NCBI GenBank assembly: GCA_011967385.1
Contig: GCA_011967385.1_4516.1
Strand: one strand, 5' to 3'
DNA length: 27,389 nucleotides
Origin: a phage
Shown here: positions 19,651-21,837 of the stretch, one piece after another
Position numbering within the stretch: position 1 is the first letter of the stretch
Layout of the letters: each line of letters starts with the position of its first letter
Notes under the pieces: model-generated
The model's input: the letters and a program-made list of their open reading frames with translations, nothing else
Told to the model about the DNA's origin: nothing
Databases searched by the model: none
Position numbers and translations under genes: made by a program

Positions 19651-20310
19651 TTAACCTCGATTCATAAATGCATTAAATATTTGGTCATCAACAGAAATTT
19701 CTAGTTCGACTTCAATTGCTTCAGCCTTTTCTTCAGGTGGTAATTCGTATCCACACACTACAATTTTTTCATCGATATCAAAATATACAGAAGCAATACG
19801 ATTAATGTTATTTTCAGTTAAGTCTAAATCAACATCAACATCTTTTTGACCTACACTTAAAGGATAACTAATACGGGTTATTTTATTATCTTTAACAAAG
19901 AGTCCACCAACATACTCTGTACTACGTTTGAAGTTTACACGTTTCCGAATTGAAAGATATGATACATCTTTACCGTGAGCTCGGCTCATAGGACATAATG
20001 AATAGCTAGAATAAGAGATATCAAATCCTACGCCTTCAACATGTGCCAGAGTATCATGAGTAAACCAATTATAGTCGTATGCCAAATCCATTAAATTATA
20101 ATATGTGAACGGAACTGGATTAACGTCATACGTTGTACCTTTAAAATCTGCCCAGGCAACGATTTCGTTATCTTTAACAATTACAAAAATTACACCAATA
20201 TGGTATCCGTTATTATTTTCATTCGGCGTTATATTATAACATTGTGCATTAGGAAATTTACCATATTTAAACGGCGCGTTTTTGTGCATATAATAAATCA
20301 TATTATTCAC
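19651..20310 (-). CDS. Hypothetical protein, 219 aa (position and size like T4 61.2)
   Basis: ORF track; synteny only. Confidence 0.55.
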   Translation of the reverse strand: MNNMIYYMHKNAPFKYGKFPNAQCYNITPNENNNGYHIGVIFVIVKDNEIVAWADFKGTTYDVNPVPFTYYNLMDLAYDYNWFTHDTLAHVEGVGFDISYSSYSLCPMSRAHGKDVSYLSIRKRVNFKRSTEYVGGLFVKDNKITRISYPLSVGQKDVDVDLDLTENNINRIASVYFDIDEKIVVCGYELPPEEKAEAIEVELEISVDDQIFNAFMNRG

Positions 20311-20596
20311 CTGTGATTTCGGTTACGATATCTTTGTTATCGAAATTAGGGTCACAATACAAAACATAGTTGTACTGCATGATACCACCAGACTTAAGTT
20401 GTTCAACAACTTTATTAACCATATTAGGACGGTCTCGTTTAGTGATGTTCATGATATCAGAGAAGATTTGTTGTTCAACATCTTCTTGATTTGCAGTCAT
20501 TGACCACTCACAGAGGTCTTTATCATAACCTGCCGTAACTGGAGCCGGTGCACATGATACTGCAAGTAAGATTGCTGCCAATGATAACTTTTTCAT
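20303..20596 (-). CDS. sp: Spackle periplasmic protein (inhibitor of tail lysozyme, superinfection exclusion)
   Basis: 97 aa; signal peptide MKKLSLAAILLAVSCAPA; GYDKDLCEWSMTA...IMNI.KRDRP...LKSGG.MQYNYVLYCD matches recalled T4 Sp. Confidence 0.8.
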   Translation of the reverse strand: MKKLSLAAILLAVSCAPAPVTAGYDKDLCEWSMTANQEDVEQQIFSDIMNITKRDRPNMVNKVVEQLKSGGIMQYNYVLYCDPNFDNKDIVTEITGE

Positions 20597-20625
20597 TTTA
20601 ACTCCTTAGTTGATTTGATAGGACT

Positions 20626-20654
20626 ACTATACTATAGTCCATCTATAATGTAAA
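20626..20654 (-). promoter_or_regulatory. Early-type promoter: -35 TTTACA, 17 nt, -10 TATAGT, upstream of sp
   Basis: Minus-strand GTTTACAttatagatggactatagTATAGT. Confidence 0.45.
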
Positions 20655-20659
20655 CAAGT

Positions 20660-20908
20660 TTATTCTTTTTCGCGAATAATAATTACTTGTTGAGGCTGCT
20701 GAGCAGATTTCTTTTCGGCAACGATAGACCAAATTAAAGTTCCAATCCAACCAACCATCGTCCAGTTAAAGAGCAAAGATACAAAGAAGATTGCTGTTGT
20801 GCTTTTTGTGCCACGAATAAGTGCGATTACCCAAGGCAACATGTAAATGATGATTGAACCAATACCTGCGATTAAAACTGCTACTGAACTAGCTACGAAT
20901 AATTCCAT
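20660..20908 (-). CDS. Small inner-membrane protein, 82 aa, two hydrophobic segments
   Basis: ORF track; hydrophobic composition; own promoter at 20937-20966. Confidence 0.55.
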   Translation of the reverse strand: MELFVASSVAVLIAGIGSIIIYMLPWVIALIRGTKSTTAIFFVSLLFNWTMVGWIGTLIWSIVAEKKSAQQPQQVIIIREKE

Positions 20909-20936
20909 GTTAATTTCCTCTTGATTTGTTATGTTT

Positions 20937-20966
20937 ATAGTATCTTGTTTTAACTTTGGCGTAAAC
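20937..20966 (-). promoter_or_regulatory. Early-type promoter: -35 GTTTAC, -10 TACTAT, upstream of the 82-aa membrane protein gene
   Basis: Plus-strand tatagtatc ... gtaaac architecture shared with the other promoters. Confidence 0.4.
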
Positions 20967-20969
20967 CAA

Positions 20970-21338
20970 TTAATTAAATTTGTTTAAACGTTCAATACAC
21001 TGGACGTAGTTATTCGCGATTTGTTTCTGGGTAGGCTCTTTACCAGTTGTTTCAATATAGCGAATGAATGCGATTTCAGTAGCCTGTAAGCAATGTTCTT
21101 TAACGCGTTGTTCTTTTGTCAATGCTACAGTATCAGAATCACGATAACGTTGAGCATGGGCATCAGCTTGAATCATTCGATTACCTACAGTAACCGGGTC
21201 TTCCACTTCAACTTTAGGTTGGTTGTACTGTTTAACATTCGGGTTATAAATCAATTGGCCAACATTATTAGGGATAAAGCCGTGAGCACCACATCCAGTT
21301 AATCCGAATACCATTGCTAAAGCGATTAATTTTTTCAT
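20970..21338 (-). CDS. Predicted lipoprotein, 122 aa (signal peptide with lipobox LTGC)
   Basis: N-terminus MKKLIALAMVFGLTGC; promoter at 21367-21396. Confidence 0.6.
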   Translation of the reverse strand: MKKLIALAMVFGLTGCGAHGFIPNNVGQLIYNPNVKQYNQPKVEVEDPVTVGNRMIQADAHAQRYRDSDTVALTKEQRVKEHCLQATEIAFIRYIETTGKEPTQKQIANNYVQCIERLNKFN

Positions 21339-21366
21339 TTCAATTTCCTCTGTAGTTGATAGAAAG

Positions 21367-21396
21367 ATAGTAACACAGTATGCGGTGCTTGTAAAC
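21367..21396 (-). promoter_or_regulatory. Early-type promoter: -35 GTTTAC, -10 TACTAT, upstream of the lipoprotein gene
   Basis: Plus-strand gatagtaac ... gtaaac; same architecture. Confidence 0.4.
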
Positions 21397-21409
21397 AGCT
21401 ATTTTAAAA

Positions 21410-21598
21410 TTATCGAAAATCTGCTTCAAAAACTTTCTCGTCATTAACAAATGCTTTAACTAATGCATTGTTCACTTCAGCAAGTTGTACCGCCACCCAC
21501 TCGATTTCTTCACGATCACCTGATAACATAATATCTTTAGTGAACATCTCACCGCTTTTAAACCAACCGATAAAAGTAACTTTAGTTAATTTGCTCAT
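21410..21598 (-). CDS. dmd: Dmd antitoxin (inhibitor of host RnlA/LsoA RNase toxins)
   Basis: About 62 aa from the ATG at 21596-21598 with GAGGA SD; KVTFIGWFK...MFTK...VQLAEVNNALVKAF..D.KV.E.D.R matches recalled T4 Dmd (60 aa). Confidence 0.75.
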   Translation of the reverse strand: MSKLTKVTFIGWFKSGEMFTKDIMLSGDREEIEWVAVQLAEVNNALVKAFVNDEKVFEADFR

Positions 21599-21837
21599 AT
21601 TTCCTCGCAAAATGCCCATTCAGCGTGATAAACTGTAGCACCTTTAGTATCATTCATTTGAACTACGTCTACCGGAGAAATTACTCGATAGAGACGTGGT
21701 TCACCTCCATAAGAGCGTGCTGCTCGTCCTGCATAAATCTTTGCTAAACCGATATCTTCAGTAAAGAATACACGATTCAAGTTTTTCTTACGTCCGGTTT
21801 CAGACAGAACTCCTGTTTCTTCAGGAGGACAAAGCAT
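21595..21837 (-). CDS. Hypothetical protein, 80 aa; possibly the downstream part of a frameshifted gene
   Basis: ORF track; weak SD; a 46-aa ORF with a good SD (ATG at 21909-21911) overlaps its 5' end in another frame. Confidence 0.4.
   Translation of the reverse strand: MLCPPEETGVLSETGRKKNLNRVFFTEDIGLAKIYAGRAARSYGGEPRLYRVISPVDVVQMNDTKGATVYHAEWAFCEEI

Follow-up and report, generated by a model that had tools for sequence, protein, structure and literature searches.

The predicted lipoprotein gene imm.1 accompanies the superinfection immunity gene imm at all T-even-type loci examined

Superinfection exclusion by T-even phages has long been attributed to two proteins, Imm and Spackle (Sp). A stretch of 27,389 nucleotides of phage DNA (assembly GCA_011967385.1, contig GCA_011967385.1_4516.1; hereafter the window) carries three small ORFs on the minus strand between positions 20303 and 21338, all of which have both a Shine-Dalgarno sequence and a match to the T4-type early promoter, and raises the question of whether a third protein, the predicted lipoprotein encoded by one of them, takes part as well. 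An initial annotation, made from the sequence alone, had described the three products as Spackle, a two-helix membrane protein and a lipoprotein, and the ORFs themselves were confirmed (97, 82 and 122 aa, respectively).

The window belongs to an RB69-like Mosigvirus, with 98.6% nucleotide identity to RB69, and the segment shows 95-99% identity across 155 Mosigvirus records. RB69 (NC_004928) has the same three genes, annotated as sp, imm and imm.1 (RB69p035, RB69p036 and RB69p037), in the same order and with the same spacing as the window, where imm.1 precedes imm on the same strand with a gap of 61 nt and the imm.1-imm pair is separated from sp by 63 nt. The identities of the three genes are virtually certain. 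The arrangement is common to about 155 sequenced Mosigvirus genomes, and the sp-imm-imm.1 locus of RB69-type phages is, as such, already annotated and ordinary; the segment very probably represents the RB69-type (Mosigvirus) layout of three early genes, with products at three sites in the envelope of a host cell that is already infected. Neighbours of the cluster are adfA (gene 61.2, anti-DarT) and dmd, and the Mosigvirus imm.1-imm pair is located between dmd or gene 61.4 on one side and sp on the other. Gene 61.4 lies between imm.1 and dmd in RB69 but is missing from the window, and its presence varies among close relatives within Mosigvirus. No repeats of note that could account for a relocation were found between positions 20250 and 21450. 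What remains near the 43-42 region of RB69 is a short ORF whose annotation notes similarity to the 42-imm intercistronic region of T4.

The gene sp (gene 61.3; 20303-20596, minus strand; phrog_1586) encodes a 97-aa precursor that shares 66% identity with T4 Spackle. The initial call of Spackle was borne out by the T4_Spackle profile PF25676, which is matched in full length (145 bits, cut-off 27; 1.1e-42; residues 1-96 of 96), and by the T4 Spackle structures 6x6o and 7cn6, which also match over the full length (E ~1e-39). At the N-terminus, MKK leads into a hydrophobic core, and a signal peptide comprising residues 1-22 is predicted, with cleavage between VTA and GYDKDL. The mature periplasmic protein would then have 75 aa and retains Cys29 and Cys81, in line with T4 Spackle, where the mature form spans Gly23-Glu97 and the two cysteines form a disulfide (PMC7677548). 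Inhibition of the gp5 tail lysozyme by Sp is likewise inferred from the 66% identity to the T4 protein.

The 82-aa membrane protein encoded by the middle gene (20660-20908, minus strand) does have the two long hydrophobic segments expected of it, and its identity, which had initially gone unrecognised, is that of Imm, the inner-membrane superinfection immunity protein (phrog_1039 at 1.2e-30). It matches the PF14373 profile with 56.9 bits (cut-off 27.9; 1.8e-15), shows 64% full-length identity to T4 Imm, and is hydrophobic almost throughout, without a periplasmic domain. Reportedly, Lu and Henning found in 1989 that T4 is excluded when T4 Imm by itself is supplied from a plasmid. The assays of a 2026 preprint used Imm alone as well (bioRxiv 10.64898/2026.03.06.709160), and on both counts the basic activity of Imm would not need Imm.1. 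In the same study, a fragment of gp29, the tape-measure protein, co-purified with T4 Imm, and exclusion was lowered by the substitutions W50A and R33A (bioRxiv 10.64898/2026.03.06.709160). The corresponding residues, R32 and W49 of the window protein, are invariant in an alignment of eight diverse Imm sequences. By homology, Imm of the window would thus exclude superinfecting phage and bind the tape-measure protein as T4 Imm does, although tape-measure binding as the mechanism of Imm has been reported in this one 2026 preprint only. Taken together, Sp and Imm can with good confidence be predicted to function as in T4.

The preprint authors liken Imm to HK97 gp15 and to colicin immunity proteins (bioRxiv 10.64898/2026.03.06.709160), which are also small inner-membrane proteins that block an incoming pore-forming or tape-measure domain, but which are unrelated to Imm in sequence. 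With regard to the third gene of the cluster, it may be added that HK97 gp15 and the colicin immunity proteins have, to our knowledge, no lipoprotein partner.

This third gene, imm.1 (20970-21338, minus strand; phrog_1754 at 2e-29), encodes a protein of 122 aa that matches PF17578 (DUF5481; 38.8 bits, cut-off 27, 1.4e-9) and shows 33% full-length identity to T4 Imm.1 (BLASTP 4e-19). Its N-terminus, MKKLIALAMVFGLTGC (21291-21338, minus strand), has the layout of a lipoprotein signal peptide, with a basic MKK, the hydrophobic core LIALAMVFG and an LTGC lipobox (L13-T14-G15-C16, encoded at 21291-21302) that ends in Cys16 and is followed by Gly at position +2. It passes a PROSITE PS51257-style pattern ([LVI][ASTVI][GAS]C with the Cys at 15-35, a basic n-region and a hydrophobic h-region), which upholds the lipoprotein signal of the initial annotation. 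The same pattern is also matched by the signal peptide of Sp (LLAVSC15), hence Imm.1 is not the sole lipobox-like sequence in the cluster. A chance match is nevertheless ruled against, since the lipobox Cys is present in 13 of the 14 divergent lineages of Imm.1-type proteins, whereas the pattern is fitted by about 2.9% of all ORFs in the comparison loci that reach 60 aa. Imm.1 is therefore predicted, with high confidence, to be a lipoprotein. In one relative, P0002, the lipobox Cys has been lost and the protein resembles an ordinary secreted one, indicating that lipid anchoring is not indispensable. Asp at +2 occurs in none of the 14 lineages. Gly at this position can retain artificial reporter constructs in the inner membrane, which makes sorting of Imm.1 to the outer membrane less certain.

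Beyond the lipid-bearing residue, the number of cysteines is even in every lineage, which fits disulfides formed in the periplasm, and two C-terminal cysteines are aligned in all 14 (Cys83 and Cys114, invariant family columns). AlphaFold2, run with alignments of 4 and 15 sequences, gave a mean pLDDT of about 60 (60.8 in the model considered) with residues 75-120 alone modelled confidently; the mature protein appears as a poorly modelled tether, which bears a YNPNVKQY...PK..VE motif, followed by helices. A Foldseek search of the PDB with this model returned no match (best E 3.3), hits in the viral-structure library BFVD were confined to the protein's own family, and a sequence search of the PDB with Imm.1 returned nothing. 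Pfam, NCBIfam and PADLOC gave no family beyond DUF5481 for Imm.1, and NCBIfam and PADLOC had no match for Sp or Imm either. Word-indexed homologue searches yielded three clusters apiece, while a HMMER profile run against 1.84 billion representatives reached six, all of which are apparently phage-derived, with no bacterial homologue among them. A literature search for imm.1 and DUF5481 did not find a functional study.

That each gene has an early promoter of its own, as had been proposed, agrees with a search for the T4-type early-promoter pattern GTTTAC-N16-18-TAnnnT, although the hits are consensus matches and not mapped transcription starts. Ten sites were found in the window, where 1.18 would be expected from shuffled sequence, and all of them lie on the minus (coding) strand. 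The site 5' of sp (20626-20655, minus strand) reads GTTTACA-N17-TATAGT, scores 10 of 12 in a sigma-70 scan and is followed by an AGGAG Shine-Dalgarno sequence. The site 5' of imm.1 (21367-21396, minus strand; GTTTACA-N17-TACTAT with an upstream TG, then a GAGG Shine-Dalgarno sequence) differs by one base from that of RB69. Weakest of the three is the site 5' of imm (20937-20966, minus strand; GTTTACG-N17-TACTAT, then GAGG), which scores 8 of 12, below the threshold of the sigma-70 scan, and was caught by the pattern search. With separate promoter-like sites and a gap of 61 nt, imm.1 and imm of Mosigvirus need not be co-translated. In T4, imm.1 and sp fall into the early class at the level of both RNA and protein (PMC9697503 supplements). 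A spanin-like pair formed by Imm.1 and Imm was also considered and was rejected on the basis of the early-promoter matches, the early class of T4 Imm.1 and the lack of a periplasmic domain in Imm.

The lipoprotein had initially not been recognised as a T4 feature at this locus, but T4 encodes full-length homologs of all three window proteins, among them an Imm.1 (DUF5481) that likewise has a lipobox (LAGC) and two C-terminal cysteines, plus an extra Cys pair that is missing from the window protein. What differs is location alone. In T4, imm.1 lies directly upstream of imm, with a gap of 11 nt, between genes 43 and 42, and sp is about 6 kb away from the pair, as opposed to the 63 nt found in the window, where each gene has its own promoter-like site. 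The proposal of an expanded superinfection-exclusion module hence stands as far as exclusion is concerned, given that the 82-aa protein is Imm, but not with regard to expansion: T4 already has Imm.1, and the module is rearranged, with the imm.1-imm pair relocated beside sp.

The pairing of a lipoprotein gene with imm extends well beyond T4 and RB69. A same-strand lipobox ORF was found within one gene of imm at 22 of 22 T-even-type loci, compared with 3 of 58 other phage Imm loci, and it is this constancy of an imm-adjacent lipobox ORF at all T-even-type loci examined that is new here. In most genera the pair sits between the DNA polymerase gene 43 and gene 42, and imm.1 is directly upstream of imm in three contexts (43-imm.1-imm-42, dmd-(61.4)-imm.1-imm-sp and frd.3-imm.1-imm), with gaps of 7-33 nt or overlapping genes outside Mosigvirus. 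A lipobox protein within one gene of imm is also encoded by Moonvirus Merlin, Jiaodavirus JD18 and the Serratia phages PS2 and 4S, as well as by Dhakavirus and Gaprivervirus, which have the inverse order, with the lipoprotein gene downstream of imm, past an ORF for a 45-47-aa membrane protein. Adjacency of sp and imm, in contrast, was seen at Mosigvirus loci alone, while the other genera examined, T4 and Jiaodavirus phages among them, keep the two genes several kb apart.

The lipoproteins adjacent to imm in these other Tevenvirinae are longer than that of the window (146-176 aa as called, vs. 122 aa), yet share the tether and a helical region with two aligned cysteines. Two of them are detected, weakly, by a profile based on DUF5481, and alignment with hhalign gave probabilities of 67-74% for DUF5481 against the Moonvirus and Dhakavirus groups, limited to the N-terminal motif, and of 6% for the Serratia phages. 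Homology of DUF5481 to the lipoproteins of other genera is thus supported to a moderate degree at the level of sequence. The pairing spans genera whose lipoproteins have diverged past detection by tblastn, and other ORFs of the 43-42 interval vary. Adjacency among T-even phages may nonetheless partly reflect general synteny, and the independent tests of linkage amount to two or three rearrangements only.

Since imm.1 and imm are paired in all T-even-type phages examined, Imm.1 might be an accessory of Imm-mediated immunity. The chances that it is functionally coupled to Imm appear about even, whereas a contribution of Imm.1 to exclusion can be proposed only tentatively. More specifically, and with slightly greater reserve, Imm.1 could be a third component of T-even immunity, tethered to the outer membrane and working with Imm by means of the YNPNVKxY..PK..VE motif and a helical hairpin. 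As such it might act in the periplasm by catching the tail tip or tape-measure protein of an incoming phage or leading it astray, or else by holding Imm in place or stabilising it where injection occurs, and the ancestral unit would consist of two genes, or of three if the small membrane ORF downstream of imm is included.

Other roles have to be weighed against that of a third immunity component. T5 Llp and Cor are, like Imm.1, small phage-encoded lipoproteins, and act in phage-phage conflict at the envelope, leading to the speculation that Imm.1 masks a receptor or protects from debris in a similar way and is placed beside imm only incidentally. It would then bind, for example, OmpC from the periplasm, so that adsorption is stopped or progeny are spared from inactivation by debris. 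Such a role would suit a small, early, phage-encoded protein that lacks Asp at +2 and is hence expected to be sorted to the outer membrane, as well as its faster divergence (33% identity to the T4 protein, vs. 64% for Imm and 66% for Sp), as would be seen for a protein that tracks a variable partner. However, Llp and Cor block receptors, whereas exclusion by T4 imm and sp stops genome translocation "without blocking secondary adsorption", on which lysis inhibition moreover depends (PMC6832632), and receptor masking is down-weighted for this reason. Imm.1 also resembles no known family in sequence or fold, with no similarity to Llp or Cor in Pfam or in Foldseek searches against the PDB and BFVD, and masking would leave it unexplained why imm.1 stays beside imm through relocation and inversion. 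It is therefore considered rather improbable.

In another role, one in lysis timing, Imm.1 would relay or shape the periplasmic signal that secondary adsorption gives for lysis inhibition, or guard the envelope against lysis from without, alongside Sp and Imm. Mutants of sp and imm are partly defective in lysis inhibition, and it has been proposed that Sp or Imm takes part in propagating the signal (PMC6832632). Imm.1 is early and faces the periplasm, like the known players, and its pairing with imm is confined to T-even-type phages and rare in other Imm-encoding phages. On the other hand, this case is built on association, and Imm.1 has no similarity to RI, RIII or spanins. We know of no rapid-lysis mutation from the classical r-mutant screens that maps to imm.1, which further counts against a role in lysis timing, and the latter is accordingly rated as improbable as receptor masking. 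Somewhat less improbable, but still unlikely, is that the three genes are functionally unrelated and were brought together by modular shuffling, with Imm.1 acting, for example, as an inhibitor of a host periplasmic enzyme or defence. The region is indeed a mosaic of small accessory genes, with adfA and dmd nearby and gene 61.4 coming and going among close relatives, each gene of the cluster has its own promoter-like site, and sp-imm adjacency is limited to Mosigvirus among the loci examined. It is the imm.1-imm pairing which, unlike that of sp and imm, holds at every one of the T-even-type loci and speaks against shuffling.

By homology to T4 and, for Imm.1, by prediction from sequence, exclusion at this locus would probably proceed as follows. 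Spackle would be exported via the Sec pathway, its signal peptide being cleaved after residue 22, and in the periplasm would bind the gp5 lysozyme at the tail tip of a second phage and inhibit it, which would keep the tail tube from passing through the cell wall. Imm would enter the inner membrane and bind the helical-bundle domain of incoming gp29, thereby blocking the channel for DNA entry. For Imm.1, lipidation of Cys16 and sorting to the outer membrane, on its periplasmic face, are probable; the protein would hang from there by a flexible tether, about 30-55 residues long, that bears the most conserved motif of the family and ends in a helical hairpin, the two family-invariant cysteines probably being joined by a disulfide. 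From the outer-membrane or periplasmic side it could then act on the incoming tail tip, on the tape-measure protein or on Imm itself. The pair of imm.1 and imm has moved beside sp in Mosigvirus, which makes the genes of both exclusion systems contiguous, with each gene keeping its own early promoter.

In every T-even-type phage examined, imm thus has a constant neighbour, encoding an early and probably outer-membrane lipoprotein. If Imm.1 takes part in exclusion, T-even immunity would have an outer-membrane or periplasmic arm, with consequences for how phages compete with one another and for how T-even cocktails are designed.

The three genes of the segment at 20303-21338, all on the minus strand, are sp (97 aa, 20303-20596), imm (82 aa, 20660-20908) and imm.1 (122 aa, 20970-21338), exactly where the initial annotation had placed its reading frames, and in each a Shine-Dalgarno sequence (AGGAG or GAGG) lies a few bases 5' of the ATG. 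Nucleotide identity of the 1036-bp segment reaches 98.6% with phage RB69 and 99.1% with Shigella phage ESh15. Matches covering 80% or more of its length were obtained in 155 records, nearly all of them 95-99% identical, hence the window is assigned by sequence to an RB69-like Mosigvirus. The sp-imm-imm.1 locus is already known and annotated, the genes carrying these names in the RB69 record, where gene 61.2 flanks them on one side and 61.4, dmd and gene 41 on the other.

A search of the 27-kb window for the T4-type early-promoter pattern GTTTAC-N16-18-TAnnnT returned 10 matches, compared with 1.18 expected from shuffles, and all 10 lie on the minus (coding) strand. Three of them are found directly 5' of sp (20626-20655), imm (20937-20966) and imm.1 (21367-21396), so the early promoter proposed for each gene is borne out as a consensus match; a generic sigma-70 scan detected the sp and imm.1 sites, while the weaker imm site fell below threshold. 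An inverted repeat at 20621-20640 (GGACTA-TAGTATAG-TAGTCC), with perfect 6-bp arms around a spacer of 8 nt, overlaps the promoter-like site of sp at its -10 element and recalls the promoter-stem-loop cassettes that were proposed as mediators of gene shuffling in T4-type genomes.

Sp matches T4_Spackle (PF25676) over its full length (145 bits), as well as phrog_1586 and the solved T4 Spackle chains 6x6o and 7cn6 (E 1e-39), is 66% identical to T4 Sp and retains Cys29 and Cys81, which form a disulfide in the helical bundle of mature T4 Sp (Gly23-Glu97; PMC7677548). By homology to the T4 protein, for which experiments established this activity, Sp would inhibit the incoming tail lysozyme in the periplasm. 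The Sp signal peptide (20531-20596) also harbors a lipobox-like motif with a cysteine at position 15, N-terminal to the accepted signal-peptidase I cleavage site (after residue 22). The cysteine is conserved among this phage (LLAVSC), T4 (FALASC) and Klebsiella phage KpV477 (FAVSSC; Sp 45% identical, comparison locus L101:1201-1494). The 82-aa membrane protein is present as originally described, but its identity had been missed: it is Imm (PF14373, 56.9 bits; phrog_1039), 64% identical to T4 Imm. According to a 2026 preprint (10.64898/2026.03.06.709160), part of gp29, the tape-measure protein, co-purifies with T4 Imm, which binds the helical-bundle domain, and exclusion is lowered by the T4 Imm substitutions W50A and R33A; the corresponding W49 and R32 are invariant in eight diverse Imm sequences. 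Again by homology to T4 experiments, Imm would block tape-measure-dependent DNA translocation at the inner membrane. The reading of the cluster as a superinfection-exclusion module is upheld, as two of its three genes, sp and imm, are classical exclusion genes.

The third protein, Imm.1, matches DUF5481 (PF17578, 38.8 bits; cut-off 27) and phrog_1754, a family without known function, and its N-terminus (MKKLIALAMVFGLTGC) passes a PROSITE-style lipobox test, in agreement with the lipoprotein signal first noticed. It had been considered foreign to T4, yet T4 has a homolog at a different locus, in the interval from gene 43 to gene 42, with an 11-nt gap to the imm gene downstream (125 aa, N-terminus MKIAILVIALGLAGC, 33% identical over the full length), labeled in the T4 record only as a "hypothetical predicted membrane protein." Compared with the 64% and 66% of its neighbors Imm and Sp, this identity indicates that Imm.1 diverges much faster between T4 and this phage. 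Both imm.1 and sp of T4 fall into the early class, for RNA as well as for protein (PMC9697503 supplements), hence Imm.1 is a real, early-expressed protein. In two AlphaFold2 runs the mean pLDDT was about 60 both times, with low confidence for residues 1 to ~55 and confident helices at 75-98 and 104-120; the invariant Cys83 and Cys114 sit on these helices and probably form a disulfide staple. Residues 31-46 (YNPNVKxY..PK..VE), within the low-confidence tether, hold 11 of the core family's 31 invariant columns, which suggests a putative binding motif. Foldseek searches against the PDB and BFVD found no fold match outside the Imm.1 family.

DUF5481 is very small, a HMMER profile run against 1.84 billion representative proteins yielding six clusters, all apparently phage-derived, and imm.1 lies immediately upstream of imm in every context recovered; one contig with frd.3 upstream of the pair represents a third genomic context. 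Further loci were chosen from phages with Imm but without Imm.1 by tblastn. In Moonvirus Merlin, Jiaodavirus JD18 and the Serratia phages PS2 and 4S, an ORF just upstream of imm encodes a protein of 146-152 aa whose lipobox reads LTGC or LSGC and whose C-terminal part carries two cysteines, while in Dhakavirus and Gaprivervirus imm is followed downstream by a small membrane ORF and then by the gene of a lipoprotein (LSGC; called at 166-176 aa). When an Imm alignment was scanned against viral contigs, 80 loci were returned, and a same-strand lipobox ORF was found within one gene of imm at 22 of 22 T-even-type loci versus 3 of the 58 remaining loci, which come from different contigs that are in most cases much shorter; as background, 52 of 1786 ORFs match the lipobox pattern. 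Two aligned C-terminal cysteines are shared by all 14 aligned lineages and the lipobox cysteine by 13, whereas aspartate at +2 occurs in none. The exception, an Imm.1 relative on a single 1.5-kb metagenomic contig (L010:718-1086), has phenylalanine in place of the cysteine (LAGF-SAHA followed by S) and what looks like an ordinary signal peptide; it appears to be soluble and periplasmic, yet is encoded immediately upstream of imm, and a sequencing error is possible. Homology beyond the common architecture is uneven: hhalign gives probabilities of 97% for the Moonvirus against the Dhakavirus group, 83% for the Dhakavirus group against the Serratia phages, 67-74% for DUF5481 against the Moonvirus and Dhakavirus groups, resting on an N-terminal motif, and 6% for DUF5481 against the Serratia phages.

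The order 43 - imm.1 - imm - 42 is found in T4-type phages and two metagenomic relatives. In RB69, sugar-metabolism genes fill the stretch from the gene-42 homolog to the expected gene 43 site, and this stretch also keeps a 36-aa ORF (RB69ORF054c, L014:7424-7534) annotated as "similar to T4 42-imm intercistronic region" and homologous to the small hydrophobic ORF after imm in T4-type phages, Dhakavirus, Gaprivervirus and the metagenomic contig (L010:1341-1490; further loci L002:3134-3283 and L029:2740-2883). On this sequence evidence, the imm.1-imm pair has moved out of the 43-42 region to its present site, with 61.4/dmd on one side and sp on the other. The hydrophobic ORF (36-49 aa; ...MIPT[IL][IV]LGW...LQ.KYEC[FI]N), which follows or overlaps the end of imm and is unannotated in the T4 record, stayed behind in RB69 when the pair moved, so the ancestral module may have included it as a third member. 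What had been proposed as an expanded module is instead rearranged, as its gene set is that of T4, and the Mosigvirus arrangement puts the genes of both exclusion systems together. RB69-type phages do have imm.1, 33% identical and at a different locus, so that a reported gene-content difference involving this gene (PMC5885020) seems to be a clustering-threshold artefact.

Gene 61.2 (19651-20310), which shares its first 8 nt with the end of sp, encodes the anti-DarT factor AdfA (PF23813, 3.7e-119), and dmd (PF17587, 21410-21598) lies on the other side; flanked by these counter-defence genes, the cluster belongs to an early stretch that is a run of conflict genes against host defences and rival phages. 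Gene 61.4, which separates imm.1 from dmd in RB69 (L001:5037-5310), is missing in the window, leaving a gap of only 71 nt (21339-21409). Among Mosigvirus genomes, some have 61.4, giving matches in two pieces that span 487 bp, and others lack it, giving matches in one piece; the sequence difference stops shortly 5' of the promoter-like site of imm.1. The ORF upstream of dmd (21595-21837), which contains a terminator-like hairpin (21810-21827), is called at 80 aa and matches only positions 26-105 of phrog_2110, compared with 105 aa for RB69ORF040c, so its start codon or N-terminus may differ.

Imm.1 is predicted to carry a lipid anchor that holds it on the periplasmic face of a membrane, probably the outer one, with some doubt left by the glycine at +2. 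Argued solely from the conserved pairing, functional coupling to Imm is an evenly balanced proposition, and a contribution to exclusion is a more tentative one. Imm alone from a plasmid reportedly excluded T4 in the work of Lu and Henning in 1989. Plasmid-borne Imm alone also excludes T4 in a later assay (10.64898/2026.03.06.709160), which argues against a strict requirement for Imm.1. A receptor-masking lipoprotein is improbable, since T4 exclusion leaves secondary adsorption unblocked (PMC6832632), while Imm.1 may act in lysis inhibition, guard against lysis from without or have an unrelated periplasmic function. A literature search returned no functional study of Imm.1 or DUF5481, and the lipoprotein gene that accompanies imm throughout the T-even phages examined offers a modest but concrete experimental lead.
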